NCBI GenBank assembly: GCA_973895155.1
Contig: OZ316896.1
Span: forward strand, 6,314,166-6,378,165
DNA length: 64,000 bases
Reading direction: 5' to 3'
Source of the DNA: Marsupella aquatica
Taxonomy: Eukaryota; Plantae; Marchantiophyta
Positions within the stretch are counted from its first letter, which is position 1, and each line of letters starts with the position of its first letter. A program made the translations under genes and the position numbers. This document shows positions 1,161 to 59,830 of the stretch, piece by piece. The notes under the pieces are model-generated. The model was not told the DNA's origin. It worked only from the letters and a program-made list of their open reading frames with translations, and searched no databases.

Positions 1161-2058
1161 AGTGAGTACCCCCTCTCGGTTGCGGGGGCATAACTCTCTG
1201 TGTATTTAACCAAATTGGCTATAATTGACCTCGTTGGAAAGAGGAGCTCAAGCCGCTTCCAACGCTGCTATCCACGCAGCAAATGGTTGAATTAAGAAAT
1301 CGGGAGAGGAGGTGCAAGCTCGCGAAAACCATGGAGGAGGGCCAAATCCGAAGTACATAGCCAATTCGAGACAGAAATAAAGTTGCGAGTTAGGGTTCAG
1401 TAGTTAGAGATAGTGGCGGCTCTATTAGGGCTGGGATGGGGCTCCAGCAGCATAGTATCCACCCATTTGGGCTCAGTATGAGAGTATATAGAGCAGCCTC
1501 CCGGTAGAGGCAAGGGGGGGGGGGACTTCAGTTGTGTGATCTCACTTAGACTGAGCAGCAGGGAGGAGCTCTGTGCAAGCAAGGCTGGACTTGGACGCTG
1601 CGTGTTGGGGAGAGCTTGGTTGTGCTATTACTTAGGGAGTAATCAGCCAAGCTTCACAGCTGCAACGGGTTGCTAGGTTTGCGAGCTGGATTGTGGCTCT
1701 TTCTAGTGGGCAGCACAACTGGGTTCTTTTCCCCCGATACAGAGCCTTGGTGATAGGTGATGTATTGGTGATTGTAAACTGTGGAGAGGATTTCAATGTG
1801 ATTTGTGGTGAGCACATTAGGGAGGCTGAGACACTGATTGAGGGGCAGCAGGAGGAGCATTTATAGTTCAGTCTGGCAAGGCTACGGGATCCATGGGGAG
1901 TCCCGGCCTTTGTCTGGTAGAGAGCACTAAGGGATTTATGGCCAGAGCTGAGCTTGCACGGCAAGCGTGAGGCCGGGCCTCATTGCAGTCTGGGATAGAG
2001 AGGAGCAATCTCATCAGTTATTAGTGACTGATATCAGTCACCGACATTTTTTTGGACA

Positions 2059-2807
2059 ATCTCGGAGACCTCTCCGAGATTGACCCCTTTTTTTTAATCA
2101 ATCTTGGAGGCATCTCCGAGATTGACGTCCTATTTTGTGTCAATCTCGGAGGCCTCTCCGAGATTGGTCACCAAAGTCTCCAACAATTGTTACAATCTCG
2201 GAGAGCCTCTCCGAGATGGGATCAACACTGGGTTTGAATCTTGGAGAGCCTCTCCGAGATTGCCAAAAACACTGGGTTTAAATCTCGGAGAGCGTCTCCG
2301 AGATGGGATCAACATCACTTGGAATCTCAGAGAGCGTCTCCGAGATGGGATCAACATCACTTGGAATGTCGGAGAGCCTCTCCGAGAACATCACTTGGAA
2401 TGTCGGAGAGCCTCTCCGAGAACATCACTTGGAATGTTGAAGAGCCTCTTCGAGATGGGATCAACATCACTTGGAATCTCGGAGAGCCTCTCCGAGATGG
2501 GATCAACGTCACTTGGAATCTCGGAGAGCCTCTCCGAGATGGGATCAACGTCACTTGGAATCTCGGAGAGCCTCTCCGAGATGGGATCAACATCACTTGG
2601 AATCTCGGAGAGCCTCTCCGAGATGGGATCAACTTCACTTGAAATCTCGGAGAGCCTCTCCGAGATGGAATCAACGTCACTTGGAATCTCGGAGAGCCTC
2701 TCCGAGATGGGATCAACACTGGGTTGGAATCTCGGAGAGCCTCTCCGAGATGGGATCAACCTCACTTGGAATCTCGGAGAGCCTCTCCGAGATGGGATCA
2801 ACATCAT
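2059..2807. repeat. Left subterminal array of the 22/23-bp palindrome, mostly 42-bp period
   Basis: Unit TTGGAATCTCGGAGAGCCTCTCCGAGATGGGATCAACATCAC; about 19 palindrome copies by eye. Confidence 0.95.
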
Positions 2808-2892
2808 TTGAAATCTTGAACATTTATTATTATGAAAGGATACAAAAGTGTATCGTTCTACCCACTAAACCCGAAACATCTTTGACATGCAT

Positions 2893-5800
2893 TCACCCTG
2901 AGCCTGCTACATTTGACACCAATTTACGAACCTCGCTAAGTGTCAAGATTGGCTGGTGGATCTCTTGGTCGCTCTCTAGATCTCGTCCACAAATATTTTT
3001 ATAGCACCAATACAAGTGTTTGCAAGGAAAGAAGTATCTTCCAGTATCTCTCATGATGAAATCTTGACAAGAGCAAGTTGGGAACACACATATCTGTACA
3101 CAATGGGCTGAATTACGGTCACGATGAGTGTTGGAAAGTACCACTCGTAAGCCAGTTGCATTCCCTTTTTCAATTCGAGTCATGGAAGTGAACCTCATCA
3201 ACTCGGATTTGGCACTCTCAATACGTTTCTTTGCATCTGCCGTCACAACCAATCTCCTTCGCCGTAAGCGACCATTGCGCCGGCTCAGCCTGACATCAGG
3301 CTTCAATGGATCCAACTGCTCAGGGTAACTATTCAAGTCCACAATTACATCGCCAGGACTCACCATTGAATCACCAGGAATGATGGTCTGTACCACATTC
3401 AATTCATTCACATGGAGAAAATCAACTTTATCTTGTGTTAGATAGGTTCCTCGAGCAACTAGGACCTTCTCCGGTAGTGGGGGCAGCCGCCCAGTAACAT
3501 ATGCCATGGAGGATTTCTGGCAACACTTGTTGTTTGGGCAAAACCAAAACTTTTGTGGAATGTTTGGATCCTTGTAACTGCTCCCAGCCAATAAGCACAA
3601 TCCTACCACACCCAACGTTGCATGACAAAACCCCACCTCCTTGATGTATAGACCGCATGCTGGACATTCTGTGCCTTTGAAGGCACCTCTACAAGCGGGA
3701 CCACTTCCATGGCGACTGATGCGAGACAAAAACAACATTCCTGGCATCACATTGCTCTCCTGAACTTGTCTTTGTTGGCCTCTATTATGCAAAGGTTCAG
3801 CAAACCGCATTGGTGGATAAACAGGGGGTGACCTTGGTATTGACCTTGTTGGGGTTGGAGGAGGTGGAACACGTGTTGCCCTTGTTGGGGGCGGAGGAGG
3901 CACTCGAGTTGACCTCCTTGGGGTTGATGGTGGAGGGACACGTGCTGACCTTGTCGCACGCTGTACTGGGCTCTCCAAAATCACCACATCTGATCCACCA
4001 GAGCCTGTAGGAGAGTCTGACGAGGTTGACAAGTCGACCACGTCAAGAATGGTACTTTTCAAGTTTGCATCTTGGCTTGAAATCCCCTTGAACTTCCGCT
4101 TTTTAGGTCGCGTTACTAGAATGACATCATCGCGATGGGAGTCTTCTACTGCAATAGCATCAGCTGGAACCTTGCCTCGCGCCGACATTCGTTGAGTTTC
4201 ATAGTCACCAGGAATTGGGTCCCCCGAAGCATATTCAACCATCTCCGGTTGAGTCATCACCGTATTTAACTTTGGGAAGAAACTCTTAACATTCCCAACC
4301 ATCCTGGCATCTCGGAGACGAAGTTCAAAGAGGCTTGGGCCGCGGCCCTTCCTCCCGTGGGTCGTGTAGTTCACAAAGACACCAATTTGATTTGATGCAC
4401 GGGTTGCATCCGTTATACAAGATTGCACTATCCCAATCTTTGTTGTGGAAGACCATCGGCCCATCACGGCATGCACGGATTCTGCCCCGCTATGGTTCAG
4501 CATCAATGTAGACTTAGTTCTGTCCATGTCCTACACAAAAATCAAAGAAAAGAGTATTACCAAAAAATGTACATGGGTCATCTTGTACATCTGCAACATG
4601 TCCAACGGGGTCTATCCTGGAGAGGCTCTCCAAGATGACCAGTGTTTCATCTCGGAGAGCCTCTCTAAGATGAACCGTGTTACAAAATAAAAGTTGGCTC
4701 TCTAACATGTCTTCCGAGTCGCCCATTTATTTCATCTGGGAGAGGCTCTCCGAGATGACCCACCTCTTCCATCTCGGAGAGCCTCTCCCAGATGACCCAC
4801 CTCTTTCATCTTGGAGAGCCTCTCCGAGATAACCCATATGTTCCATCTCGGAGAGCCTCTCCAAGATGACCCATATGTTCCATCTTGGAGAGCCTCTTCG
4901 AGATGACCCATATGTTTCATCTCGGAGAGCCTCTCCGAGATGACCCACGTCTTCCATCTCAGAGATTACCCATATGTTCCATCTCGAAGAGGCTCTCCGA
5001 GATAGAATATTACTAAGAATTCATAGACTTACCAGCCGAATAAAGTTTCCCCACTGGGAGAACCGCACAATCCACCACGAAAGCCATGTCTCCAGTGACT
5101 TGGTTTTTCCTTTGATTGCATTCCCATTTTTCCACCAATCCTTCATCTTCTCAAAAGTCCGAAATGCAAGAATCACATTGGCAGCGTCCCTCAATGAATC
5201 CAGAAGCTCCTTATGCTCAACTGCTTTGCCTGGAAGAATGCATTTCTTTGTCATCTTCTCCACTGATTGCGCCCAATGAAATGCATCAGATCGCTCCTTT
5301 TGAGAATTAACTCTTCCATCCCAGAATGTGTTTTGAACTGCATTCCACCCAACTGCAGCATTATCGGCAATGAACCCACAAAACGTAACATTGTCAAGCC
5401 CATTTGCCTTACACACTCGCTTCATGACCTTCCATGCAGTTTGTAGTGCAGCAGTATCTTCCGAAACTAGCTCGCATATAAAAATTGTGCAGAGACCTCT
5501 GTATAGGTGGTCGTATACATGAGCTGACATTGTGCACCATTGCTTCTCAGTCATCCGATGCATGACATCAAACATCACCCATGAGTCTTGTAGATCTCCA
5601 CCAGGCTGCATCCTTTGAATGAGATCGATTCCAGACCCTGGACCCTTTACAGTCATCTTGAAAATGTGTGGGCGCTCATTTGTATCTAGCTTCTGGTTTG
5701 GAAATAGAGTGCTCTGGACAAATGAAAACACTGTTTCTTTTTGAAGATCAAGGATGACTTGGAGGTCGGATGAGGCATGGGTATACTTGCGTATGCTCTG

Positions 5801-6943
5801 TATCATAGATCTTACAACTGATCGATCTGATAGGATCGCTAATGTTTCATTCAGATCCCGTGCTTCCTCAAATGTGACAATCCCAGCAACCTTGTCATCA
5901 AAAATATCCCTTAGAGCTTTAATTGTGTCACTCTTGATCACAGACGGCATTGCATGAGGATTCTTCTTCAATTTCTCCTCCATCAACTTATGTAAGAAAG
6001 CTTTTCGATCTTTCTTGAGAACAAATTTGGCCGGATGTGAGTGACTCCCAACATGCATAGCAACACGTGTCATGTGCTTGTAAATATAATGGTCATGAGA
6101 GGTCAGAGTTATGTAGAACATTTCGGCTGGACACTTGGCTATACACTTAGGAGGCCGATCACAAAAGGCGCAAATCACACTCTCGGCTGGAACTAGTCGC
6201 CCAACAAGAAATGGAACCTCATTTCTCCCACCCCTATCTCGCTGCCATTCTGTGCAATTGCGCTCATTCTTACTTGTAAAAGCCGGACAATCTGAATGTG
6301 GACATTGCAAAGAGCCCAGGTATCTCACATTCCCAATCTTATACTTGAAGCCTCCCTTGTTCAGGTTGGGTCCAATTTGGGCCCCTGTCTCGATGAGCTT
6401 GCTCCACAAGTAGCAGTCATTTCTCCGCTCCATACCCAAGAAGAAGGCACCCTTTGTGTACATTCCTGTGAATGGGGGGAGCTCAAAAATGCAATCCCCA
6501 TCATACCATTCCGGCAGAGTCATGACTCGTTGTGGATAATGCACTCTAAGAATGGAATGGGCAGCCTTTACACATCGCGAAGTGCCTTTCCCTTTCAGCA
6601 TTGCAGCAACAACACTTTCAAGAAATTCGGCTTGCTCTACCTCTGCCGGCCACTCTGAAATCTCTCCAGTTTGAGATTGCAAACCAACTTCAGTAAGAGG
6701 AACAGAGTACACCCTCTGCTGAAGGACGTATGAAACTTCACTTTTCAGATGCCATATCCTTTCCTCTCCACTCTCCTCTGAGTCTGCCTCAATCAATGGT
6801 AAGACATCGTCGGCCTCAAAGAGTGCCCACTCCCCAATCTCAACATCGAACCGACGAGCTAATTCGTTGTCTGGTGTATGCCGAACAACACCATCAGTCG
6901 CTAGCACAACAACGTCTCCATTGTCTGGAAACGTGATCCTCAC
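2893..6943 (-). CDS. MULE-family DDE transposase with N-terminal WRKY/GCM-like Zn finger and C-terminal SWIM domain; exons >=6943-5033 and 4530-2893 (~1180 aa, true start uncertain)
   Basis: Motifs WVMFDVMHR (D1), FIADNAA (D2), ERSDAFHWAQS (CxxH position), GAESVHA (E), CSC-x15-CKH (SWIM), and an N-terminal CxxxxC...CxxC...C...HxH. Phase-0 intron 5032-4531 (CTG|GTAAGT ... TTGTGTAG|GAC) joins ORFs 5021-6943 and 2893-4527. The frame continues upstream past a TGA at 6977-6979. Confidence 0.85.
4612..5003. repeat. Palindrome array in the transposase intron, 37-bp period
   Basis: Unit CCATCTCGGAGAGCCTCTCCGAGATGACCCATATGTT; palindrome starts at 4771, 4808, 4845; about 10 copies. Confidence 0.9.
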
Positions 6944-7154
6944 ACGAATATTGTTGAATATGTCAAGATTGTTTTGTCAGAGTACCTTATCGCCCAGACT
7001 GAGCGTAAAAATTGTTACAATATTCTTCCCTCGTTGAATATGTAAGAATCCTTCTTGACAACGTACCCTTGTGAGCGTGAAAACTGTTATTGACAGTGAC
7101 TAAGTTTATTGGACCAACATCCAAGAACCTTTGACAGCAAGTTTAGGGTGTTCA

Positions 7155-8055
7155 TTAGGCTCTCTCAGATGCCATCTGGAAGCCTCGACCCATGTTAGAG
7201 AGGCTCTCCGAGATTAGATCTTGCACCGGATCTCACCAAGTTTCATCTTGGAGAGGCTCTCCAACATGCCATCTTGCGCAGGTATGAGGCCTCGACCCAT
7301 CTTGGAGAGGCTCTCCGAGATTAGATCTTGCACCGGATCTCACCAAGTTTCATCTTGGAGAGGCTCTCCGACATGCCATCTTGCGCAGGTATGAGGCCTC
7401 GACCCATCTTGGAGAGGCTCTCCAAGATTAGATCTTGCACCGGATCTCACCAAGTTTCATCTTGGAGAGGCTCTCCGACATGCCATCTTGCGTAGGTATG
7501 AGGCCTCGACCCATCTTGGAGAGGCTCTCCGAGATTAGATCTTGCACCGGATCTCACCAAGTTTCATCTTGGAGAGGCTCTCCGACATGCCATCTTGCGC
7601 AGGTATGAGGCCTCGACCCATCTTGGAGAGGCTCTCCAAGATTAGATCTTGCACCGGATCTCACCAAGTTTCATCTTGGAGAGGCTCTCCGACATGCCAT
7701 CTTGCGTAGGTATGAGGCCTCGACCCATCTTGGAGAGGCTCTCCGAGATTAGATCTTGCACCGGATCTCACCAAGTTTCATCTTGGAGAGGCTCTCCGAG
7801 ATGCCATCTTGTGGAGGTATGTAGCCTTGACCCATGTTGGAGAGGCTCTCCGAGATACCATCTTGCGCAGGTATGAAGGGTTTAGGGATGTTGGAGAGGC
7901 TCTCCGAGATGCCATCTTTAGGTGTGTAGCAAGGATTAGGCCCAATATTTGTCAGAGAGGCTCTCCAAAGTTATCACCAACCTGATATGTCATCTCGGAG
8001 AGCCTCTCCGAGGTCTGATCTTGTGTAATATTCAATTTTGGAGAGGCTCTGACAT
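7155..8055. repeat. Palindrome array upstream of the transposase, 107-bp higher-order repeat (53+54 bp)
   Basis: Alternating spacers TAGATCTTGCACCGGATCTCACCAAGTTTC and GCCATCTTGCGCAGGTATGAGGCCTCGACCC; central base mostly G; units at 7301, 7354, 7408. Confidence 0.9.
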
Positions 8056-8067
8056 GGGTCCTCAATG

Positions 8068-8680
8068 ACATGTCATCTCGGAGAGCCTCTCCGACTTACG
8101 TCCCCACTTTACATGTCATCTCGGAGAGCCTCTCCGACTTACGTCCCCACTTTACATGTCAACTCGGAGAGCCTCTCCGACTTAGTCCCCACTTTACATG
8201 TCATCTCGGAGAGCCTCTCCGACTTACGTCCCCACTTTACATGTCAACTCGGAGAGCCTCTCCGACTTATGTCCCCACTTTACATGTCATCTCGAAGAGC
8301 CTCTCCGACTTACGTCCCCACTTTACATGTCATCTCGGAGAGCCTCTCCGACTTACGTCCCCACTTTACATGTCATCTCGGAGAGCCTCTCCGACTTACG
8401 TCCCCACTTTACATGTCAACTCGGAGAGCCTCTCCCACTTACGTCCCTACTTTACATGTCATCTCGGAGAGCCTCTCCGACTTACGTCCCCACTTTACAT
8501 GTCAACTCGGAGAGCCTCTCCGACTTACGTCCCCACTTTACATGTCATCTCGGAGAGGCTCTCCGACTTACGTCCCTACTTTACATGTCATCTCGGAGAG
8601 CCTCTTCGACTTAAGTCCCCACTTTACATGTCAGAGTGGAGAGCTTATCTGACATGGGGGCGTGACATATCTCGGAGACA
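8068..8680. repeat. Palindrome array in the divergent intergenic region, 43-bp period
   Basis: Unit ACATGTCATCTCGGAGAGCCTCTCCGACTTACGTCCCCACTTT; about 13 copies. Confidence 0.95.
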
Positions 8681-9261
8681 ATCTGGAACTTGAGACTGGC
8701 TTGACATGTCGTGCAAGTACTGAATATTTTTTGGAATTAAATCCAGTCATTCAATGATCGTACTCATTAATACCAAGGAATGATAGGAAATCTTATCTGG
8801 TCTGGAATCAATCGTACCAAGGACATTATGGCGTGAAGGGGTAGTAATAATGAAAGCATCTGTACAGGTACTTCAGTGTTGCGACTCTGACATGAGTCAA
8901 ATCTAGGCATTCATCATTATCAGAGTATGACAACATATAAGCCAATAAACTGCTAACATGTCAACTTCCTCCCGTGGCCCCTACCACTTGTAATCAATGA
9001 GTGGTCCCATAGATCTCCTGTTGCTTGGATGGGACTCAACCTGCGTGACGGCGATAGTGAAGTCAGTTGTGATGCCCCTAGATCTTCCGTTGCCTAATAA
9101 TGATGATGACTACTTTGGTGAGTCCCAGCCGTCTCTCGCCTTTCCTCATTTGAAAGGCGAGCAATTGAGGCCAAGCGAGTGCGAGTGCGGATGCAATTTA
9201 CCTCATATTTCTTGGAGAGCGTAAGTTGCTTTGTGATCTTTCCCTCTCCGCGCTCTGTATG

Positions 9262-9692
9262 CTATGAGTTGTGTGCTGTGAGCTGTGGTGGTGCGAGTGC
9301 TGGAAGTAGTGCGATTGTGAGTGCAGTGCGATTGAGTGCGATTGTGAGTGCGAGTAGTTGTGCGGTGCGATTGAGTGCTATGCAAGTGGTGCGATTGAGC
9401 TTGCTGTGAGTGAGTTGTGGTGGTGCGAGTGCTGGAAGCAGTGCAATTGAGTGCGGTGAGTTGTGGCGGTCGAGTGCGAGTGTTGTGCGAGCGGTGTGAT
9501 TGAGTGTTGTGCCACTGCCAGTGATTGAGCTTGCTGTGACTAAGCTGTGGCGGTGCAAGTGCTGGAAGCGGTGCGATTGAGTGCGGTGAGCTGTGGCGGT
9601 GCAAGTGCGAGTGCTGTGCGAGCGGTGCGATTGAGCTTGTTGCGACTGAGCTGTGGGTGGTGCAAGTGTTGTGCAAGTTGTGCTCGTGCAAT
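9262..9692. repeat. GT-rich degenerate minisatellite (GTGCGATTGAGT / GTGCGAGT / GTGGCGGT), possibly within a 5' leader intron (9221-9696)
   Basis: Low-complexity repeats flanked by GTAAGT at 9221 and TTCAG ending at 9696, just upstream of the ATG at 9716. Confidence 0.7.
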
Positions 9693-10460
9693 TCAGTAGT
9701 TGGTGAGATTTGAAAATGACAGGGAAGAGGAAGCAACCCACTCCCTCTCCTTCATCGTCTGGTCGGCAGACCAGATCAAAGACAACAGAGAGCACCGCCA
9801 GTGGTCGGGAAACTCACACAGTGAAGAAGCTGGAGCCGAAGGTTCTGAACTTTGAAAATGTGTCTACTGAACGTCTGAACAAAGGTGCATTCGAAGGGAT
9901 TGTTGGGGAGTACTTGCTTTCATTTGGAGCTGAACCAAGTGGGAAGCCCAGAGAGCCACCTCGGATTCCACTATGTCGTTTGATGACAATGGAGGCAGTT
10001 TGGACTCTCCAACAGAGCTCCATTCTGAAGATGAAGAAGGACTTCGTGAAGAATGGGTATGTGGACAAGTTTTTGGAATTCCACATATCAGAGACCAATG
10101 CGCATAACGCCACCCACTCCATGTCTGAATTTTCCGCGGATTGGGACCCTCTATGGGAACAAGCTAACGCAAAATTTGAGATGGAGTGTGATGAGTACGA
10201 GGAGTTTCATGTTTTGAAGGGTAAGATGTTTTGGGTGTTTGATGGAAATCATCGCCTGAATGCATGTAGACAAGTGGCTGAAGAGTATCCTGACAAGCAG
10301 AAGTACCACCCTTGCATGAGATTCTCTCTTCTACAGCCTGGAAAACAAGGATTCAGGAAGATTGAGCAGGCAATGCACGGCCTCAACGCGTAAGTTTCCG
10401 CCCCCTTGGTTTTTGGTTGTTCTTGCATTTGTTGTTTTTTTGCACCCACATAGGCAATCC

Positions 10461-10666
10461 TATCTCGGAGAGGCTCTCCGAGATAGATACATACACACAT
10501 ACAATGTTTGGCTCTCAAAATGCTATCTCAGAGAGGCTCTCCGAGATAAACCTTCCCTTCTCGGAGAGCCTCTCCGAGATATCAATGCCTTCTTGGAGAG
10601 CGATGCCTTCTCAGAGAGCCTCTCCGAGATGTCCATGCCTTCTCGGAGAGCATCTCCAAGAGAGAT
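10461..10666. repeat. Palindrome cluster in intron 1 of the cargo gene
   Basis: About 6 copies of ATCTCGGAGAG(C/G)CTCTCCGAGAT or variants within intron 10390-10720. Confidence 0.9.
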
Positions 10667-13065
10667 GTAATTTTCAGGTATGAAGACTTTGACGCCAACA
10701 TTTGTCGCTTCTTTATGCAGGATAAGCGCAAACGTTGTGCAGACATCTTGGTTGACCGATGCAGACAGGGTGAAGAAGCTGTTGATGACACCTTTGGAGG
10801 AGTATCAGACATTGCTTCATCCGGATGGTTATGCTAGATTCTTAGCAGCAAGAAGCCATGGGCATGGAAAGACATGGTATAGCAAGTGCATGACAAAGGA
10901 TGCTGCTGTGTACATCATGTCGTGGAATAATATTGAAGACGGGAGGATTCGTCTTGCGAAGGAGATGGCAGCCGATGCTGCAATTGGCCATGCCTGGAGT
11001 TTGGATAAGTTCCAAAAGGAAACCGCACTCATGACGAGTGAAGCTTGTAGGTCTTGGGAGGGCAAAATGCAGAAGTTTGCTCAGATTGTCAATCTAGCAA
11101 ATGGAGAGGAGTTTCTAGAGATTGCCGAGGAGCTGCACCAGTTGCAGAGTTAACAAAAAGATCGGCCACAAGTGCAAGTGGGGTTGGATCGAGTTAAATT
11201 GTTTGCAAGTGCGGTGATGCCTGCTGAGTGTCGAAACAAGTTACTCCGCGTTCATTTCTCAACCGCGGAGGAGAAGAAGCGACACCACCATCCAGATGTA
11301 TATGGTGATTCAGCAGTGAGAGCTTGGTTGCTAGTGTGGTCAATGTGGTGTTACATTGCCCATGTTGGCAGTTTGATAATGTCAGAGTTTGCCGAGAGTG
11401 CATATGATTCTGGTGAGTGGCAGAACTTCAATGGAAGCAAAGACGAGTTTGTTGAGTTTCACAACAAGATGTACAAGCAATTTGTACAGACTCGGTCCTA
11501 TGAGGAGGGCAAGAAGATGTGGAATCCAGCAAAGCAAAGCAAAGATGTGTGGAGGAATCGTGCAAAGAGGTGTGTGGTCAGATATTTACTTCATCAGGAG
11601 AGCATTGGAGCCTCTACTTTCAAAGTGTTACCAAGTGCTCTGACTGCATGGATGACGGAGAAAGGCCCGCTGTCAATGTATCCAACAGATGGGCTGAAGC
11701 CATCAGCAAGAGTCTTTTCAGACTGGGAGAGACAAAATTGTCCATGGTTCATGGAGTTCAATGATTGGAATGAGTTCATTACGCCCGAAGAGAAGGAAGC
11801 TGCCAACCTCCTAAAGGAGGGGAAACTACCAGACAACCTTTTTGCACCTTCAAAGTTGGGAGATCTTGAGCTGTCGACAAAGGCTGCATTGGACTTGGAG
11901 GCCATTTTGCCTCTTGGAGAGCCAGAGTATGATGGGAAGAAGGTTCGGGGGAAGAAAGAAAAGGAATCAGAAGACACCACCTCAGAACAAGGCACTCCTG
12001 GTAAGGTTTACACCCTAGCTTGCATTGTACATCTGACATATGTTTGAGAGCCTCTCCGAGATAGTATCATTGTAAAATGATAACTAAACTCCTTACTTTG
12101 TTCTGCAGAAAAAAGTAAGGAAAAGTTTGGAACCCCAGGGTCTACCTCAAGCAAACGTCGTCCGATGGATGAGAAGATGGAGCCAAGAAAGACCGGGGAC
12201 AATGGAGAGGAGGATGAGAAAGTGGTGAGTGGGGACAATGGAGAGGAGGATGAGAAAGCGGCAAGTGGGGACAATGGAGAGGAGGATGGGATGGCCACCG
12301 GGGACAATGCAGAGGGCCATGAGGAGGAGGAGGAGCCTGACCTTTCAACCCCAAGCGGGACCCCGAGTGGGACCCCAAGCAAACCACAAATCTCTGGTAA
12401 GCCAACCAGTCGGCCAAAGAAGAAAGCCGACAAGAGGATAGACGAACCCACAAAGAAGCCAGTTTCAACAGAAGCCCCAGAAATTCCGGAGGATGATCTT
12501 TGCGAAATTCTTGGAGTACCTCGGCCCTCTCATGCTATTACATCTGCCCTGCGATTTTGCCATGCAAAAGAGCATATGACCTTACTAGAGTGTTCTTCTT
12601 GGCTGAAGGACAAATATCAGCCAACCACGGGAAAGTTGCCTCTCCCTCCATTCATGAGGGAATTCCGGGACTGGTGTAAGAAATTGAAGTTGGCTGGCTT
12701 GCGAAAACAAGGTTGGATAGTTGATGGTGTACCTAAGGGCCATGGTTGTGATATGATCTTTGTTCAGCTAGGGACAGATTATCGCATAGCGCAGGCTGAA
12801 AATAATGTTCCGGTGTGGAATAGATTTCGGCTCAGTGACCTAGAAGTGGCGACGACATTGGCAGACTCTCTACTCACAAACGACGGTTTCCTGTGCAGTG
12901 GTTCATTTGCCCACATAGGCTCAATCTTTGAGTACCTTCACATTGACTGGGCTGAGAAGTTGGATCACATTGACTCATTCACCATTTGGAATGACACACC
13001 TTGCTACATGGCGTCAAGCAAAAAAGTTGTAAGTTCACTTCAATTTTGGCATTTCAATAGAAGTC

Positions 13066-13682
13066 ATCTCGGAGAGGCTCTCCGAGATAGTTGAAAAATG
13101 TGTCCGCAATTACGATGTCGAACACCCTCTCCCTTATGGGTAACATTGATCTCGGAGAGGCTCTCTGAGATAGGTAGGATCCATCTCGGAGAGCCTCTCT
13201 GAGATAGGTAGCATGGATCTCAGAGAGCCTCTCTGAGATAGGTAGGATCCATCTTGGAGAGCCTCTCTGAGATAGATAGCATGGATCTCGGAGAGCCTCT
13301 CTGAGTTAGGTAGCATGGATCTCGGAGAGCCTCTCTGAGATAGGTAGGATCCATCTTGGAGAGCCTCTCTGAGATAGGTAGCATGGATCTCGGAGAGCCT
13401 CTCTGAGATAGGTAGGATCCATCGCGGAGAGCCTCTATGAGATAGGTAGCATGGATCTAGGAGAGCCTCTCTGAGATAGGTAGGATCTCGGAGAGCCTAT
13501 CTGAGATAGGTAGCATGGATCTCAGAGAGCCTCTCTAAGATAGGTAGGATCCATCTTGGAGAGCCTCTCTGAGATAGGTAGCATGGATCTCGGAGAGCCT
13601 CTCTGAGATAGGTAGGATCCATCTCGGAGAGCCTCTCTGAGATAGATAGCATGGATCTCGGAGAGCCTCTCTGAGATAGGTA
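13066..13682. repeat. Palindrome array in intron 3 of the cargo gene, 34-bp period with alternating spacers
   Basis: Unit ATCTCGGAGAGCCTCTCTGAGAT plus AGGTAGGATCC or AGGTAGCATGG; about 17 copies; right arm reads CTG instead of CCG in almost all. Confidence 0.95.
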
Positions 13683-14499
13683 GGATTTTTAGGGTTTAGA
13701 GAGGTAGGACCAATGTCGGATTAGTTTAGCAATTAGTGTTGCTAACAAGTGCGAATCTATTTTGCATGATGTGACAGGCTCAATATCTGCATTTGGATAT
13801 ATTCGCCATGAAGGGTACAGAGGTGACCCTCCCAAAGATACATATGAAGCCAATTACTGGTGATTTGTGCCCAGGAAAGAGCAATGCTCTATCCAATTTT
13901 ACAAAGGAAGATGATGCAGTGAGAGACGAATTGGCCGGAACCTTATCGCCTGCAACCTTGCAATGCATCATAGAGCACATCACCAGTCCCGGCGATATCA
14001 TATTTTCTTGGAATGTCCACTTTGGTGCTATCTACAAAGCTACCAATAATTGTGGGCAACTAGTATTTGGGATGGAAGCGCATGACTACTTTGGTGAGTC
14101 AGCAGCTTCGGTGGTGTCAAAACTCCTTTCAACACAGCAGGGCAATCAGACCAAGGCGGAGGGCGAGGAGAGTAAGAAGGAGGAGGCCAAGGAGACTAAG
14201 AAGCCTGAAGGGCGGAAGAAGCTTGTCCTTGAGTCTGATTCAGAGGAGGATGCCGCAGAAGGCAAGGGTGGGAATGCTCAGGATTGTGAGTAAACGTTGA
14301 ATCCAAGAACCCATTTGTTGTTAGTTTGCAATTTACATTGTGCCATGGTGAGGATAAATAAAAATGTGAAGTTCCACATTATTATGGTATTACCTTAAAC
14401 TGTCTACTTAACCAATAGGCAGTTCACTACAGGAACATCGAGTCCGAACAATGGCACACATCGGACAAGGACAAAGTCCATGAAGCATGGGAGGAAGCA

Positions 14500-15531
14500 T
14501 TGAAAACTTTCTCTCCAGAAAGATTTTGCCTTCCAACTTACGCAGAAGGGATTGTTGATTCACGCCCCTTCAAACGGCTCAAGGGTGTAGCTGAGAAGTA
14601 CACAAAGAGGCGAAAATCAAGATTTGTAGATGATAGAGCAGTAGAGGTAGACTACAATGAAAGTGAGAGTGTCAGCAGTGATAGTGATAAGATAGCTCAC
14701 CCTTCTTTTGTGACCTATAGCTCAGATGAAGATGATGCCTAATGCCATGCTGTTCAATCCTATGCAGCACGTGGTGGGAATACCCAGATACCTGGGTTAT
14801 TTGCTGAAGTAGTCTGCTCTCAAGACTTTTCCGACATAGTATCCACATGTCTATCCACAGAGCTCCCAGACGAGGAAGTACTATTCAACTTTGTAGATTA
14901 CAAGTTGACTAGGGCGTCAATGAGATGCTTGTCTGAAGGAAGAACAGGAGCTCAATGGCTACATTCAGATATCATCGATGCATATTTGGCCTTGTTGCAG
15001 TTTAGGGGGAGATCAAGAGGCTATCCAAAGTGTGCATTTTTCATCACAGCATTCTACATGTTGCTCTCAACGCCCGTATACTGTTTTGCCAATGTTGCTC
15101 GATGGACCAAAACAGAAAACATATTTGATTATGACAGGATATTGGTCCCTATCCACCAGGCAAACAGGGAGCATTGGGTGTTGGCAGTGATTGATTTAAC
15201 TGGAAAAGAGGTGTTGTTCCTAGATTCACTTTGGGAGAAATCAGGAAACTTTTGGGAGGCTCGAAATGAGTATCTCATGTATACTCTAACAAGGTATGTC
15301 GAGGATGAAGCAAGTCAAAGAGGCATGCCCTCACCAGATGCAAACAACTGGCCTAGAACTTTAGTGTCAGGCCTTCCATCACAAGAAGATAGTGTAAATT
15401 GTGGGGTATTTATCCTTAACTATGCAGAGCGCATAAGTCGAGATGCTCCTATGGATTTTGATGGCAGCTAGGTAGGAAACTTGCGAAAGAAGATTATTTA
15501 TGACCTGTGCACATATCAGATAACAGAATAA
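14500..15531 (+). pseudogene. Ulp1/SENP-family (peptidase C48) SUMO protease carried by the MULE; 5' end uncertain
   Basis: WLHSDIIDAYL, ILVPIHQANREHWVLAVID, FLDSL and QEDSVNCGVF give the H-D-C triad plus oxyanion Q. ORFs at 14500 and 14905 share a frame across TAA 14740-14742, and the frame continues past TAG 15469-15471 as VGNLRKKIIYDL to TAA at 15531. Confidence 0.9.
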
Positions 15532-15654
15532 AGTAGTGGCCAACAGGGGTTAGCTTTAGAGAAGGTAGCAATGATGAAGTGTTGCTGTGTACACATTATA
15601 ATATATATGAAAAGTGAATGTGATGTGTATCACTTGCAAATTTTTTGTATTTGT

Positions 15655-16037
15655 ATGTCGGAGAGGCTCTTTGAGATGGTCTTAGAAATGGAATGGGAAA
15701 GTCAATGATGGTTTGCAAAGTGACTTGGTATCTCGGAGAGGCTCTCCGAGATGGTCAACAAAAATACTTGGTATCTCGGAGAGGCTCTCCGAGATGGCAA
15801 TGGAGTGACTTGGTATGTCGGAGAGGCTCTCTGACATGGTGAGCAAACAAACTACCATGTCTCCAACATACTCCTGGAAGTGTGTTGGGATCTCGGAGAG
15901 CCTCTCCAAGATTGCCAAAAACAATTGTTGCCATCTCAGAGAGGTCTCCGAGATTGCCAAAAAAATGGTAGGGATCTCGGAGAGCTCTCCGAGATTGCCA
16001 AAAAAAACTGTCGCCATCTCGGAGAGGTCTCCGAGAT
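15655..16037. repeat. Right subterminal palindrome array
   Basis: About 9 copies; outermost ATCTCGGAGAGGTCTCCGAGAT (16016-16037) is the exact reverse complement of the outermost left copy (2059-2080). Confidence 0.9.
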
Positions 16038-17016
16038 TAGAGAAAAAAAAGGGGGGTGACTAATATCAGTGACTGATAACTGATGGATTACCTCCCCACT
16101 CTGGGATAGATCGTTGTTAGGCCTGGTATCAGCTTTGAAGTCGAGTCAACTGTGCATGCGTAACTTGACGTTCTGAATTGGAGGTGTGAGATCTGCATGT
16201 GCCCCCAAGAATGAAGTGCAGTGAAGGAGGTTGAGTTCAGGATTGAGTTTGCAAGGCAAGTACGGGATTGGTTTGAGTCCAATCTGCCGTTGCAATCTGG
16301 AGTGAGCCGGGCTCAGGTTCAGGATTGAGCTTGCATGGCAAGCATGGGGCTTGCAGGGCAAGCACGTCACAATCTGGAGGAGACAGCCTTCGGCCCTAGT
16401 GTTTGGATCAAGTGTTCTCAGTGAACTATTGTGCACATCTTTGAATCTAATTGATTTTTCCTCTCAAGCCTCATTTCTCTCATGGATGTGTGTGTGTGTG
16501 AGGCAATCTGAGTGTATGATGGGACTAGCAGCGCCACTGAGAGGTGTACATGGTGCATTGAAGCGGGCTGGGTGAGGACTGTCATAGCTCTGATTGCTGA
16601 GAGTGGAATGGCAGAGTGGTGGGGCAATGGCTTAGAAGTCCCTAAGCCGGGAATCAGTCAGGAGTCACTGGTTTATGGGTACATTCCGGCGGTGGAATAG
16701 AAACATACCTATGACAGTAAGCATACATATAGACCTATGCGCACCGTAGCGCTAGGCCCTGTGGGTACGGGCCCGATATGAAGACCCCTTCTCACCAGAA
16801 CTATCATGAGCGCAGATCTGATCCCCAACCTTGGTTCTTTGGGATTGAGCTTGGGTGATGTGTGATAGAGTCTTGCTATGATAGTCTGGTGTTAAGGGCA
16901 TAAATTTGTGTTTCCCGACCTTCACAACATCCCTTCGTGATCCTCAAGTACAAGGAGATGGTTTTGGCACCCATAGTGACATTTTTGGTGTTAAGACCCA
17001 TGTCAATCGCGTGACA

Positions 17017-18826
17017 GCCGCCTCCTTCCCTTTAAGTTGACGGCGCTCTGCACTTGATTTATTTGCCACAGCGGTCGACGGTTCAGCCGTTGCGTCTTCT
17101 TCATCTTGCTTGTAACGTTTGTCTAGGGAAGTCAACCCGTCCTCCTTCCGTTCATCTTGAACTTGGGCTCTCCCCTTGGTGGGGGGAGCCTGCTTGCCAC
17201 TCTTTGCACGAGTGTTTTTAGCCATGTTCCTAGCGACCGAATCTGCCCGTAGTCGAACCGCCGGGCACGTTGAAACACTAAGTCCCCGCAAAAACCGTTA
17301 AGATTTTTGGATTCCGACTTGGCACAACCCCGACCCGGTGTCTATGCCAACAATCGCTCTGATACCACAAGTGGTGGACCTTGCCGCCCAACGCCCTCAC
17401 CAATCCCAGCACTTGCGCCTAAGTGCCCTTGATGCCCAAACGCCTCCACGAAATACCTCGAGCAAGCATCCAAGTGCCTCTAGCACCACCAGCGGCCACT
17501 CCCATACGAAGCCGCACTTGCTCACCTACACGACCGCTACTCAACGGTCCTCACTGTCTGCACAAACAACCAAGCACCTTGGTAAGTAACCCCTTCGGAT
17601 CTAGAACTTGCCAAGTCTAGCATCCTAACTCAATCTCAACAGACGTTGGTAAATAGGTCAGCGATAGGTCCTCCCGATGCCATAAGCCGGAACCAGAACC
17701 CACGCCCACTGTCCGTCCAGGATAGCTCCTTCCTTGGGCGCGGCCCGGGTTCCCCCTCGTACCTATCCATCACCAACTGACCGCCCTGACCTCAGGACAT
17801 ACTCATGGCCCAAATAGCGTAGCTTGTCCTAAAGCTTATCCCAAGCTTGTCTCAACACGTCGGGACCATAACAGCCCCGACTCTAACTCCGACTCCCGGT
17901 TTGCCCCACTGATGGTCTAGGGACCGAGCGCTCTTGGGACTCAGCCTCCATACCTACTTGGCCTTGCCTCCCCAACGCAAGCTCCCTTGGGAGACTGAAC
18001 GCGGCTTGGCTGCTGTTCGGCAGGATTTGGTACACGGACGAGCTAACACCCGCAAACCACGAGAACCCATGGCGCCCCCAGAGCTTTCCAATGCACCTAA
18101 GAAGTCCTCCAACGGACTTCCCGTTGGAAAGATATCGCCATTTTCGTTTGGCGGTTTCCCTTAGTGTCGCGACCGCCGCGGCTCACGACTTCGGCTCGCC
18201 CTTAGCCCCCAGGGAGACACCACTCCCCTCATATATGCTTCTGGAGACCTGCCACCCCCGGACCAGCTTTGGTCCCTAAACATTTGGCCCCCAACCCGGA
18301 TCCCATCGCGCATAACGGGCGCGCCACCAACTGGCAACGCCCATAACTTTCTTGATAGGCATCCGCAAGCGGAGTGCCTTAGCCCGTTGTGACTGGGCCG
18401 ACCCAGTGCTCATGCCTAGGCCCTCAGGTCTGATCGCCGCTCGGGGCCCCCGGCCGGCCCAACCCGGCTCGGGCCACAACTTGCGCCCCAAGCGTCCGTT
18501 GCCAATGGCATCAACTCCATTGGCCTTGGGCCCAAGAGGAGCTCACTCCCAAGCCCTCAGAACTCAAAGCCCATCCGATGGTCTGGACGGCCACCCTTGA
18601 GCCTGGCTCATTTCCCCTTGACTCAACCAGCCATAGGCTAGTCCAAGTCCTTAGTGTGTGTCCCCAGCTTGGCCCCTTGCCTCGCTAGTGCCACGTCTCA
18701 TTGCCCACAAGTTTCCCCATGCTAAGTCCTCCCCGGATGGCCTATCCGGGCCTGGACCATAAGGGAGCTCGGCGTCGGAGTCAGCGACGCCGGAGCTAAG
18801 TGTTAAGGTAGTCGAGTTCCGTGACT
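17017..18826 (-). mobile_element. Chromovirus copy 1: gag start, tRNA-iMet PBS (17356-17367) and 5' LTR (17370-18826)
   Basis: Matches 38778-40610; GCTCTGATACCA is the reverse complement of the PBS TGGTATCAGAGC; LTR runs AGT...ACT. Confidence 0.92.
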
Positions 18827-19869
18827 TGTTGTGGATAGTTTGATGTATGCAATGACATGCACTACACCTGACATTGCCCACGCAATTAGCATTTTGAGCA
18901 GATTTATGGCAAATCCTGGTAAGCTTCATTGGGAAGTAGGGAAGTGGGTTTTACGGTATCTGAAATGTACCTTAGATTGTGGAATCTTATTTGACGGTAA
19001 AGCATACTCTACATTAGAGTTGGAAGGTTTTGTAGATTCAGATTATGATGGTAACTTTAATAACAGAAAGTCTACTACAGGCTATGTGTTTAATATGTTG
19101 GGTGGAGGTTGTATCAGCTGGAAGTTGACAACTCAATCCTGTGTTGCATTGTCTACTACTGAGGCTGAGTACATGGCTGTCTGTGAGGCAACCAAGGAGC
19201 TGATCTGGCTATGAAGATTGGTGAGTGATCTGGGTCTTTCACTTGAAAGACCGGTGCTTCTATATGTCAGTCAAAGTGCTTTGCATCTGGCTAAGAACCC
19301 TGTGTTCCATGTCTAGACAAAGCACATTGATATTTGTTATCACTTCATCCGTGAGGTGATTGAGATGAAGCAGATGTCTCTGGAGAAAGCGGCTTTAGAG
19401 GAGAATGCCGCAGACATGCTTACCAAAGTTTTACCTACCAGTAGCTTTAGTCATTGTGTGGATATTACTAATGTTAGGGCCAAACCGGAGACTATGTAGA
19501 TATGTTACTTAGTTACATATTGTATATCACCTGACTCATTGTGTGAACTAGAGTCAAGGTGGAGATTGTTAGGAATTGACTCGAGTTCCCGACTTAGTTA
19601 GTTGGCCTTACTAAGGTTAGTTTACCCTGGATTACATTAGGATAAGATCCACTTAGTTTAGGCCCACACATCTTGGCCCCCTTGGGGGGTATAGGTTGGA
19701 GGGAGAGCATTCTCTCCTCATTCTTCACATGTACTCTCATTTGCTACGGAGCCCCCGACAGAGCCTTAAGGAGTTTCTCCACTCTGGGTGTCTTGTCGGT
19801 GTAGCGTCTGATTGAGTCTCTCTCATGTTTCCACATTGATGTCTAGTCTAGAGCCGACGGTTTCTTACA
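18827..19869 (+). mobile_element. Ty1/copia 3' remnant (RT end, RNase H, PPT, probable 3' LTR 19567-19869)
   Basis: SLMYAMTCTTPDI, GFVDSDYDG...RKSTTGYVF, VALSTTEAEYMA, KHIDICYHFIRE with stops; purine tract AAGGTGGAGAT followed by TGTTAGG at 19567. Confidence 0.85.
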
Positions 19870-23662: not shown

Positions 23663-24366
23663 TAGTAGCGGGGCCAATTTGGATACTTGAAAACCTACTG
23701 TACTTGTTCAGCTCAGAAATGTCTGTGCTGATCTCCATGTTTGGTATGGCTACTACCGCCCCTGTCAATTTTCTATGGAGCTCCAAAATTGAGGAAATCA
23801 CAATTTGAAATCTCTGTGCAATCATTCAAAGCATTCATGAAGCTTCCAATACTTTACGGGCGTGTTCAAAAATTTGGAGGGGGAAGAGGTCCCGATTTTG
23901 GAGTTGTCTACCTCGGGTTAACTGCAGTTAGCCGGAAACCCAGCCATTTGCAAACAGCGCACCGCTACCCCACTCATATTTGACTACCCGAGAAGATAAC
24001 AGCCTGGTTATACCCTGTTTAGGTGCGCCCGAGTGCATCGCGGACTGCCCGCAAGGCCGAAAAGAAATCTATATTTGACACGCTTTGTCCTTCTCAGCCC
24101 CGTGCGGGAACAACTTCCCGAACGGCGAGTTGGGACTTCCTTCGAAAGTTCGACTGCCACCACCCTCTTCCCGTTGAAGTGCAGTACCAGCCCCTTCCTC
24201 GAGAGGAGAGTAAAAGTCTGGCAATTGGGACTCCTTTGGATAACATAGCGAGAAGATCCTTTCAGGATTCAACCCCCTGATTGGGAGATTGCGGCAAACG
24301 CGACGTACCTTGATCGAGATCAACAACCTGGATATATTTTCCTTCGCAGAGAGGAACGAAGTAGTG

Positions 24367-27300
24367 ATGTTCTGTTTGAAAGTGCATATGCCAGATCAGT
24401 TCACGGAAGTAGAATTGATGCCTCGGTCCATACGCCCAGACACGATCACCGATGGAGCAGCGGAAGGTCGAGAGGCGAAGCAACCCAGGGATGTCGGGGA
24501 CACTAAAACCGTGTGTTTTTCTTCAGGAAATCCTAGGGTGGAGTCTACGCGAGGGGTTGTGCACCTGTTCCGGAATACATCCGCAGACCCAGGCTCCGCA
24601 GACGAACTGCCGGTAAATTCAAATGCTTATTTTGCAGGATTGGGTGGCATGTTGGCTCCGCGAAGAGTGTCTTTTAATGGGATTGTGAAGTCAGCTTCAT
24701 TCGTGCCATTCCTGAACAACGAGATGGCAAATCTAGTTATAGCTTCGCCTACTTGGGCATCACTTTCCCTTCCTGAAGCTTTATTGATTTCTTGTCTTAT
24801 GCTCCCTCTTCAATTCTCCATATATACCTGTGTGCCCTTTCTCTCCTCCGCTCCACGACGGAATATGTGGTCTCTGTAAATCATTTGTACTCTCCACCGT
24901 CAAGTCATCTACTGCTCTCCAGACTCTTGGGTGATTGCCAGTTTAGATGGTGCAGAATGACACTCGATCACATCGGCCTTGTAAGCGGCACGGAGAACCA
25001 CGTTCTATTTTGGTGTAGTTTCCATGAGTGGTTTTCACCTGTTGTCGATTGCAATTCAATGTTCGCCTCAGTCATTATCGCACTTTGGTCAGAATTCGGG
25101 TTTGTTTATATCATTAGTCCTGCAGTGAAGATCAGGGATCTTGTGTGGCAATCTACCGTTTTGGCTGCTTAACCTGCTTTAATAGTATCAACCGTTCGTA
25201 AACAGTGTTTATTGTCGGTCTCATGTCTCAATTGAGTCTTTGTGCGTTTCAAATTGATTAATTCTTGCGTTCTAGACCTAAGTTTTCCGATAGATTCATT
25301 CGCTTCCTTCATTTCATTGGTTTTATCCGTCCAAGGAAATATTTCAGAATTGGTATTATTAATAATGCTCCCATAGCATCTAAGGTTGTCCAGCAGAAGC
25401 CAGACGGAATTACACAGGCAACAAAGTATTAATGTACTGGAAAAATGTACTAGAAAAATTGTAATAGTATGATTAAACAGATTTAAATGTTTATTGAGAA
25501 TCCATTGAGTTGAGAAAATTAACCCGGGCATTGCTGATGAGTGTAAAGTATGGTCAATTAGTGGCGTCATAGAAAGATTGATCATGACCTTGTTTCATCA
25601 TGTTTTAACGTGAGCTCCAGATTGGGGTGTATGGTAGTGCTATGAATGTAAACAGCTGCATGGTCTGTTATTTTGTCCCAAGACACTCCCTGTTAACGAG
25701 GAGAGAATACGGTGACAGTTCTCGGTAAGTTTATGTGATAGTTTGGCTTTTTCATATTGTTTTTGAACAAAAAAGGCTATATCTCGCAGGCTGGCCGCAG
25801 TGAACACTTGTGCGTACTTGCGGTACCAAATCATTTGACGGGTGCAGATTTTTGCCAGTTTACGGGCTCGTTTCTTCATGACATTGAAGAGATGCGGATT
25901 GTCAGGTGTGTAACAGTCGGTCAAGTTTCATCTCTATTGAAAGCTAGAGGGAGAGGAATCCAGTACTAGTCGGGAATTTTTTTTTAAGTGCTTTGCTGGA
26001 TCTCGCTGTTTCTGTCCTCAGGAATGACGGTGCAATGGATCGCTACAGTGTCCTCATGAAGTTTGATAAACAGAGTTCTGCTGATGAGTTTTATCGACAT
26101 TATAATGGGAAGCCGTTCTCATCATTTGAGGTTAGCTTTTAGTGATGATTTGTAAACGAAAGGTTGATACCATTAGCATTAACAGCAAAATTATTTTCTA
26201 GCCGTATTCCTTATGCAGTCGTTGCAGTACAGAACAGGGGAGCAGTGGTCTGGAGTGAATTGGCCCAGTTAAGGACTGCTTGTTGTAACTTTCACCACTT
26301 GCTAAGATTGCTGTCTGGCTGAAGGAAAGGATTGGATGTTCTGTCCGTGACCTCTCACTGATCTTTATACGTTTGAAACATACATGAATATCCTTCTCCT
26401 GATGCTGGGCTGATTCGTTTATCTTCCTCTCTCCTTTTGGATTGCAGGCAGAGGTGTGTCATGTATTGTTTACTGCGGATGTTCAGTATACCGATTCTGG
26501 AGAAGAAGCATCATTGCCCCCTGCAGGGTTAACTGAACTTCCAACCTGTCCAGTTTGTCTAGGTGGGTTGTCTGAGAGTGACGTCACTTTGCGTGGTGTT
26601 GATGTTCATTTCAATGATTTAGGTCAGGAAGCATTACTTCCCTCTCAAGGATTGACAGAAAATATTGCAATGCCTCAGATATTTTGATAGGATGAAACCT
26701 TGCCTTTAAGCTCTTCTATTACTGATTTGACTTTCATTTGTGTCAATTGTTGATTTGATGCAGAAAGACTTGACCAGAACATCAGTGGAATTTTGACGAC
26801 TGTGTGCAACCACTCTTTTCATAGTTCTTGCATATCCAAATGGACGGACTCATCTTGTCCTGTAATGTTTACTCCCTCTTGAAGTTAATGTCGTTTCTTT
26901 TTGTGTGTGTGTTTTCTTTTTGGGCCGGAGTAGGTTGGGGAGGTTCTTAATGCTGATAAAACGAGCCCGATTTCTTAATTGCAAAATTTAGTTGATCACT
27001 CGAGGACTTTCCTTGTTGGGTTAGGCGGACCCATGAATTCAGTTCTTCCTTCATTCGTCAGAATTGTCGGTCAGAGGTATATCTTTTATAGTTAGGTCTG
27101 AGCATTGTTGATGGAAGTTATTTGCTTCAGGATCCGTGGTAAATGGCTAGTTATCATTTGCGACTTTGCAGGTGTGTCGATACTGTCAGCAACAATCAGA
27201 GAAATCTACTTGCTCAATCTGTGATTCTCCCGAGAATTTGTGGATCTGTGTGATCTGTGGCTTTGTTGGTTGTGGAAGGTCAGAGTTGTAATTCGAGTTG

Positions 27301-31900: not shown

Positions 31901-31963
31901 ACGGCTAGGATTGTTTGGAAAAAATTGAAAGGTCTTGCATATCAAATCTCTTGGAAGTGTCCA

Positions 31964-59615: not shown

Positions 59616-59830
59616 CCACAATTTGCTAGCCCACTATTTTGCCCACTATCTTAGCACACTGTTTTGTAAAGTGAACTATCCACAATTTGCTAGTCCACTA
59701 TTTTGCCCACTATCTTAGCACACTGTTTTGTAAAGTGAATTATCCACAATTTGCTAGCCCACTATTTTGTCCACTATCTTAGCACACTGTTTTGTAAAGT
59801 GGACTATCCACAATTTGCTAGCCCACTTTT
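59616..59830. repeat. 64-bp tandem repeat, ~3.3 copies, in an AT-rich segment interrupting the gypsy pol
   Basis: CCACAATTTGCTAGCCCACTATTTTGCCCACTATCTTAGCACACTGTTTTGTAAAGTGAACTAT at 59616, 59680, 59744, 59808. Confidence 0.9.

Follow-up and report, generated by a model that had tools for sequence, protein, structure and literature searches.

A Mutator-like transposon of the liverwort Marsupella aquatica carries a gene predicted to join a ParB/Srx domain to a degenerate methyltransferase fold

Within a 64,000-nucleotide stretch of the Marsupella aquatica genome (GCA_973895155.1, contig OZ316896.1, positions 6,314,166 to 6,378,165 of the forward strand; this whole stretch is called the window, and its own numbering is used below), a spliced gene at 9716..14293 is cargo of a Mutator-like DNA transposon. 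On balance we favour the reading that this gene, present here as a copy broken by one stop codon, joins a predicted ParB/Srx domain to a dead methylase-like fold, and that its product likely binds a 23-bp palindrome and would counter silencing of the element. The identity of the parts (the element, the gene model, stop-free sister copies, non-coding palindromes and two folds predicted by structure) we hold with high confidence; for the mechanism, in which the protein would bind its own element through its middle region, ParB domain and dead methylase, with the neighbouring Ulp1 protease taking part, we see about an even chance. A first-pass annotation of the gene had mentioned neither the in-frame stop nor the Mutator-like carrier, its transposase, the Ulp1 neighbour and the palindrome arrays.

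The cargo gene and its carrier

The cargo gene consists of the following parts:

9716..10389, plus strand: exon 1, with the predicted ParB/Srx-fold domain at about amino acids (aa) 81-227 and DGNHR at aa 176-180
10390..10720, plus strand: intron 1, 331 nt, GT..AG, phase 2, with 5 palindromes; position kept in relatives
10721..12000, plus strand: exon 2, middle region, predicted all-helical, fold unassigned
11151..11153, plus strand: in-frame TAA at codon 369, private to the window copy
12001..12108, plus strand: intron 2, 108 nt, GT..AG, phase 1, with one degenerate palindrome
12109..13028, plus strand: exon 3, an acidic disordered linker followed by the first half of the predicted methyltransferase fold, with QLGT at the motif IV position (12765-12776)
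13029..13777, plus strand: intron 3, 749 nt, GT..AG, phase 0, with 17 palindromes at period 34
13778..14293, plus strand: exon 4, second half of the predicted methyltransferase fold, with SWNVHFG at the motif I position (14006-14026)

The joined exons give 1,129 codons and a stop, in line with the spliced product of about 1,130 aa and three phase-correct introns first proposed; the five open reading frames (ORFs) of that proposal fall on only four exons, because the TAA at codon 369 splits one of them. The motifs on which the proposal was built are all present, namely VFDGNHR (aa 174), DMIFVQLG (866), QLGT (871), LLTNDG (906), ITSPGDIIF (1026), SWNVHFG (1035) and ATNNCGQLVFGME (1046). A 1,104-aa protein of Riccia sorocarpa is collinear with the cargo product over its whole length (26% identity, E 2e-91), a single BLAST alignment to the family protein P0001 spans all three junctions and the site of the stop codon, and junction 1 is also crossed by P0067 at 57% identity. 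Intron 1 lies at the identical codon and phase in all four metagenome loci of the family. Intron positions are further visible where relatives fail to cross them: 39 of the 157 proteins P0023-P0179 stop within 12 residues of the last exon-1 motif (four of the 39 being cluster mates of one), and P0066 and P0132 read on into the intron at the intron-3 position. Comparison with homologues thus supports a real gene and, indirectly, the junctions of the four-exon model.

Sister copies were read from contigs of four public runs belonging to two studies, none on record as RNA. Position 11151 is A in every covering contig of all four runs (5-13 contigs in three runs and 1 in the fourth), so that the sister copies encode lysine at codon 369 and the TAA is private to the window copy, which therefore cannot make the cargo protein. 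A hidden intron around the TAA was ruled out, since the sisters read through it and the homologues are collinear. Some sister contigs carry a 9-base in-frame insertion at 12895, which fits a 3-residue gap relative to Riccia proteins, and a GT-rich tandem repeat of 130-bp period, without the palindrome, lies at 9281-9635 just upstream of the cargo start codon.

The carrier occupies 2000-16099 (14,100 bp, of which 8,081 bases are coding) and ends in terminal inverted repeats (TIRs):

1989..1999: left target-site duplication, 11 bp (9 bp is an equally good reading), an 11-mer found only here and at 16100
2000..2075, plus strand: left TIR, imperfect, containing a palindrome variant
2050..2816: left subterminal palindrome array, period 42-44
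2893..4530, minus strand: transposase last exon, with the candidate third catalytic residue (GAESVH) and a SWIM finger
4531..5032, minus strand: transposase intron, with a palindrome array of period 37
5033..6976, minus strand: transposase upstream exon, with a Cys/His finger region, FDVMH and FIADNA (D, D) and DAFHW; start codon not found
7182..8633: palindrome arrays between the head-to-head transposase and cargo genes, periods 107/54 and 43
14743..15471, plus strand: Ulp1/C48 protease domain (Pfam PF02902, E 4.9e-24), with a TAG at 15469 private to the window copy
15656..16054: right subterminal palindrome array, period 42-43
16020..16099, minus strand: right TIR
16100..16110: right target-site duplication, 11-mer identical to the left one

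The two TIRs match at about 64 positions over 76 bases and are shorter than the long TIRs of classic Mu. The target-site 11-mer occurs just twice in the window, and in all four runs contigs join the left flank straight to 16100, an empty site. Between 169 and 1,393 contigs per run fit the cargo gene at mixed identities, and the family is therefore multi-copy. On the minus strand, head-to-head with the plus-strand cargo gene, two exons encode a transposase of 1,193 codons with no internal stop, in which candidates for the D, D and E residues were read by eye. Its core falls among MULE/ZSWIM RNaseH-like clusters of the ESM Atlas (0.92-0.93), its SWIM finger reaches E 0.004 in Pfam (17.1 bits, under the Pfam cut-off of 19.6), and the Pfam MULE domain found no match in it. 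With its TIRs, 9-11-bp duplication, empty site and transposase, the carrier is a multi-copy Mutator-like DNA transposon.

Downstream of the cargo gene, the TAG of the Ulp1 gene is private too, as every contig that covers 15469 in the four runs has C for T there; with private stops in cargo and Ulp1, two of the three genes of the window copy are dead. A 107-codon frame at 14419-14742 lies directly upstream of the Ulp1 ORF and in frame with it, one TAA standing between them. The element sits in a multi-copy stretch among pieces of long terminal repeat (LTR) retrotransposons (1-1999, 16100-18828, 31962-40610 and 56234-64000; repeats 88-97% identical), in which integrase, chromodomain and reverse transcriptase frames were read by eye. 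At 24244-27998 there are fragments of a host gene that encodes a zf-UBP finger (E 4.3e-10).

Two predicted domains and the cargo family

The structure predicted for window exon 1 is confident (pLDDT 93.4), and the first 17 rows listed by Foldseek for this model were all Srx, SbnI, ParB or Noc. In a VIA comparison the best match was CTP-bound KorB (Z 7.3, within the range about which the tool warns; rmsd 2.8, 92 aligned); KorB and PadC ranked first, and 11 of the 12 rows were of ParB/Srx type. These consistent, middling scores bear out the ParB/Srx fold first proposed and lead us to a predicted ParB/Srx fold for exon 1. Pfam found neither ParB nor methylase in the window exons, and profiles built on Protein Data Bank sequences gave no match for the whole cargo protein and one irrelevant match for the ParB domain. 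Across 115 aligned rows the domain keeps R96 (76/84), D176 (79/94), G177 (89/94), N178 (92/93), H179 (88/93), R180 (83/93) and N224 (67/68). This conservation of DGNHR, the upstream R and the downstream N, at 84-99%, suggests that the family's ParB-like domain has a working nucleotide site.

Instead of a DNA clamp, the domain might be a nucleotide enzyme of sulfiredoxin, SerK or GmrS/DndB type that acts on a protein or metabolite. Sulfiredoxins fill the ten best Foldseek rows, SerK, SbnI, SspE and BrxU occur among the VIA rows, and weak Pfam matches to DUF1015 (5/60) and DndB (3/60) were found among 60 family members. Yet KorB and PadC stand first in VIA, the fusion partner has a DNA-methylase fold, and DGNHR also occurs in an ordinary phage ParB, at 7848-8378 of the phage locus L001 (whose neighbours, read by eye, include terminase and 7-deazaguanine-type genes). 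We consider such an enzyme quite improbable.

In the ESM Atlas, the clusters nearest to exon 1 (aa 40-224, 9833-10387) are DUF3723 (0.94, 171 shared features) and ParB_N (0.90). DUF3723 is described as an auxiliary gene family of Starship elements (PMC11162782), and a literature search joining DUF3723 with ParB found no paper. DUF3723 may be a ParB/Srx-fold transposon protein.

For the C-terminal half, structure was predicted on the Riccia homologue, whose model gave 26 structure matches at E<=1e-3, including CcrM (E 1.6e-5), M1.HpyAVI, BceJIV and the rotifer N4CMT (8s9m, 4.4e-4); phage and giant-virus methylases were matched as well. Sequence profiles agree weakly, with Pfam N6_N4_Mtase found in 8 of 21 family members (best 3.3e-6), and motif IV precedes motif I, as in beta-class amino-methyltransferases. 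Exons 3-4 are therefore predicted to encode a beta-class amino-methyltransferase fold, as the first-pass annotation had proposed; N4-cytosine and N6-adenine ancestry cannot be told apart.

The same annotation had judged the enzyme probably dead, and the family as a whole agrees. Catalysis requires a base-stacking aromatic as the fourth residue of motif IV. This residue is aromatic in 0 of 41 rows, 32 of which read D-[ILMF]-P-[TSMI], and none of the 195 retrieved proteins carries [DNS]PP[YFW]. In the window copy and two close relatives the D and P are lost too (QLGT, SVGT and SMGA). At motif I, D-x-x-x-G-x-G is kept in 11 of 16 rows and H-x-G stands in 4, including the window copy, where SWNVHFG replaces the D-x-F-x-G-x-G that binds S-adenosylmethionine. 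Whether sister copies keep DPPY or SPPY had been set as a check: the main sister contigs share both QLGT (one other letter over 12555-12952 in X1) and SWNVHFG (one other letter over 13866-14029 in X2), and just downstream they are nearer the methylase consensus. From these alignments, loss of the catalytic motif is a family trait and not decay of the window copy. Since open frames still encode the domain, but without its catalytic motif, it is probably a dead enzyme, a pseudo-enzyme, and a transposon family can evidently keep a methylase fold after its catalytic motif has gone.

A methyltransferase that stays active through a non-canonical D-x-P-T/S site in at least some subfamilies, and marks its own element with N4-methylcytosine or N6-methyladenine, we regard as improbable. 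It would account for the kept fold, for the D and P of 32 of the 41 rows, for D-x-x-x-G-x-G in 11 of 16 and for the DVPF of the fern protein P0113, and the algal homologues are predicted to be writers (PMC12477816). It has to contend with the missing aromatic and with the further loss of D and P in the window copy and its two close relatives, and dead methylases borne by transposons have a precedent in DIRS1 (PMC4738411).

Relatives were found in liverworts and ferns. A word search returned 22 proteins, all from Riccia sorocarpa, and a profile search gave 493 matches, of which 150 were listed; the 20 of these that were looked up included proteins of Riccia (2), Calypogeia (2) and Adiantum (5), and none of the 20 was named as algal. 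A search for full-length fern members returned 3 proteins, 1 of them new. In a tree of the ParB domain (73 rows, fragments with fewer than 115 aligned residues left out) there are several deep clades, and the window copy groups with the metagenome loci L003 and L004 and four proteins at 100/98. As judged from these sequences, divergence within the family, across liverworts and ferns, is deep, and an intron is conserved. Two Riccia gene models have weak matches, below cut-off, to SAWADEE, a histone-methyl reader: P0014 at 96-177 (E 0.005) and P0021 at 353-434 (E 0.012). Outside plants, a single narrow peptide pattern scanned against prokaryote genomes matched 3 places, all unrelated, and weak viral searches gave 2 weak motif-only loci, one an ordinary phage ParB, and no locus when a closer alignment served as query.

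The first-pass annotation had also raised horizontal acquisition and a possible route for such enzymes into plants. An ultimate prokaryotic or viral origin of both domains is plausible from the structure matches; recent direct transfer is not indicated, because the family is so deeply diverged and shares an intron. A related idea makes it a host gene that came from bacteria not long ago and is the ancestor or a relative of Marchantia DN4MT1. We find this barely credible: rotifer N4CMT and methylases of bacteria, phages and giant viruses do match the folds, but the gene lies inside a mobile, multi-copy element, the family has diversified deeply with a shared intron, and SPPY is missing from all 195 proteins. 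DN4MT1, by comparison, has TSPPY and is an active host enzyme (10.1101/2021.02.12.428880), so the proposed route into plants finds no support.

The palindrome and its candidate binder

The palindrome, ATCTCGGAGAG[G/C]CTCTCCGAGAT (23 bp), occurs in 80 copies at up to 4 mismatches, all inside the element (2195-15912) and none in its 8,081 coding bases; 5 shuffles gave none. Its arms at 1 mismatch have 38 matches, with 0 in 100 shuffles. The copies are arrayed, at periods of 34, 37, 42-44 and 53-54, across all four introns, the intergenic spacer and both subterminal regions, most of them kilobases away from the element ends. Two relatives diverged from the window copy, L003 and L004 (43% and 46% identity), carry the same outer arms around a different 9-base core in their intron 1, in 2 copies (0 in 200 shuffles) and 1 copy, respectively. 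Conserved arms in otherwise diverged intron DNA point, from these two loci, to the palindrome as a candidate protein-binding site. Changes within the palindrome are concentrated at the two CpG sites, where C>T is seen at position 5 in 23 and at position 18 in 19 of the 80 copies, as expected for a methylated, silenced copy, although copies within arrays are not independent.

The match between the anatomy of the element and that of Arabidopsis VANDAL elements leads us to favour a self-binding accessory protein, VANC-like in role, as the binder. The middle region, confidently all-helical in the model of the Riccia homologue, would read the palindrome; the ParB domain, in which DGNHR and N are conserved, would use a nucleotide (cytidine triphosphate, CTP, by analogy) and close or oligomerise on the arrays; and the dead methylase may have been kept as a grip on DNA or cytosine. 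The neighbouring Ulp1 could remove SUMO from silencing factors. The outcome would be a self-protection kit like that of VANDAL, built from different parts, that keeps the element from being silenced.

The transposase could also be the binder, because the palindrome lies in the TIRs too. The palindrome would then be the transposase's own site, and the ParB-methylase protein a transposition helper, like MudrB, or a non-specific DNA binder. A palindrome variant in both TIRs and the subterminal position of arrays fit this alternative, as do a preprint in which a Mutator transposase itself is reported to activate cognate copies (10.64898/2026.08.24.746577) and the description of mudrB as required for integration (PMC6446971). 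However, most palindromes lie far from the ends, in every intron and in the spacer; two diverged relatives still have the palindrome within intron 1 of the cargo gene itself; and inverted-repeat arrays adjoin ParB-like cargo in an unrelated transposon superfamily (10.1101/2025.02.11.637652). We take this alternative seriously as a minority possibility.

Several observations weigh against self-binding by a ParB-like cargo protein, among them the palindrome variants in both TIRs. Conservation of the motif rests on 2 of 4 short loci: the palindrome is missing from the whole intron 1 of L006, which belongs to another clade, and the intron of L005 is cut at about 60 nt. Linkage of cargo to transposase was seen in this window only, and many of the motif rows are Riccia near-copies; of the 493 matches, 150 were listed. 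As for the N-terminal domain, the sulfiredoxins heading the Foldseek rows reach at best E 0.021, with none at or below 1e-3, the VIA score lies in its cautioned range, Pfam ParB matched none of 60 family members, and at aa 96 (10001-10003) the window copy carries W in place of the R found in 76 of 84 relatives. For the middle region, the one search made, full-length and with a list filled by methylases, brought up no ParB-type helix-turn-helix. The DVPF of P0113 counts on the same side.

In a bolder version of the self-binding reading, the Mutator elements of liverworts and ferns would have a ParB-parS system of their own, in which CTP would gate clamp loading at arrayed palindromes, the clamps would spread in plant chromatin, the dead methylase would shield cytosines and Ulp1 would strip SUMO. 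We think this unlikely as it stands; we know of no ParB clamp shown so far in a eukaryotic nucleus. Were it true, land plants would have two anti-silencing systems, built independently of each other, and DUF3723, an auxiliary family of Starship elements, might be the fungal counterpart of the one described here.

Comparison with known systems

With bacterial ParB, KorB and SopB and with phage ParB-methylase fusions the cargo protein shares the predicted fold and the G-x-x-R motif. The arrays resemble F-plasmid sopC, with its palindromes at a 42-43-bp period, and the palindrome resembles the KorB operator, an odd palindrome with a central G/C. Unlike bacterial ParB, the cargo protein is encoded by a spliced eukaryotic gene, has an insertion of about 40 residues before DGNHR and a long helical middle region, and comes without ParA. 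Like rotifer N4CMT (the 8s9m match) and Marchantia DN4MT1, it brings a predicted beta-class amino-methyltransferase fold to a eukaryote; unlike them, its family lacks an SPPY-type motif and is carried by a transposon, and beyond the fold we found no link to either.

The closest precedents are algal. Sola1-1_Ec32 of Ectocarpus is described as carrying, opposite its transposase, a 1,104-aa gene product with ParB-like and N4C/N6A methylase parts, and similar genes are cited for green and red algae (PMC12477816). The likeness, drawn by description only, extends to size (about 1,100 aa), to the joining of both parts in one ORF, to the strand opposite the transposase and to a large DNA transposon as carrier; the Ectocarpus gene is likewise proposed to bind its own element, and also to modify it. 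The Marsupella element, by contrast, is Mutator-like and has a Ulp1 gene as further cargo, and the cargo family, whose named members come from land plants, has lost its catalytic motif throughout. In the red alga Bostrychia, the Plavaka gene PAG3 is ParB-like, stands beside inverted-repeat arrays and is proposed to bind its own element, and homologues of PAG2 and PAG3 are reported in Mutator elements of Chondrus (10.1101/2025.02.11.637652). ParB-like cargo by tandem inverted-repeat arrays, together with methylase cargo, is thus common to Plavaka and the present element. In Plavaka, however, two genes are involved, one joining ParB to a 2-oxoglutarate oxygenase and the other joining the methylase to SET, whereas here a single protein holds ParB and a degenerate methylase, and palindromes occupy all introns and the spacer, unlike the Plavaka accessory genes as far as they are described.

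Because ParB-methylase cargo and inverted-repeat arrays have already been reported in algal transposons, the Marsupella element is a land-plant variant of a concept in print. In a literature search that covered subscription journals thinly, no description of such cargo in a Mutator element of a land plant came up; the form with Ulp1, the family-wide catalytic loss and a defined, partly conserved site were likewise not found there. The algal papers propose, and in their available parts do not show, that ParB-like cargo binds and protects its own element. This idea becomes directly testable with a concrete pair, one protein family and one 23-bp site with conserved arms, in lineages near the genetic model Marchantia. 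If it holds, such a pair could also offer a programmable tool for local epigenome change.

VANB and KAONASHI carry Ulp1, and to our knowledge VANDAL elements have no TIRs. The present element resembles them in being Mutator-like, in carrying extra genes and in confining arrays of a short motif to non-coding regions. VANC binds motifs that have multiplied into tandem repeats within introns, between genes and in the terminal parts of the element, lowers methylation, and recognises an 8-9-bp non-palindromic motif that differs between subfamilies (PMC5735166), whereas the Marsupella element has TIRs and a 23-bp palindrome. Pfam scans of the cargo family, the form in which the two were compared, indicated other domains and no likeness to VANC. 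If the self-binding reading is true, the element would represent a second self-targeting anti-silencing system in land plants.

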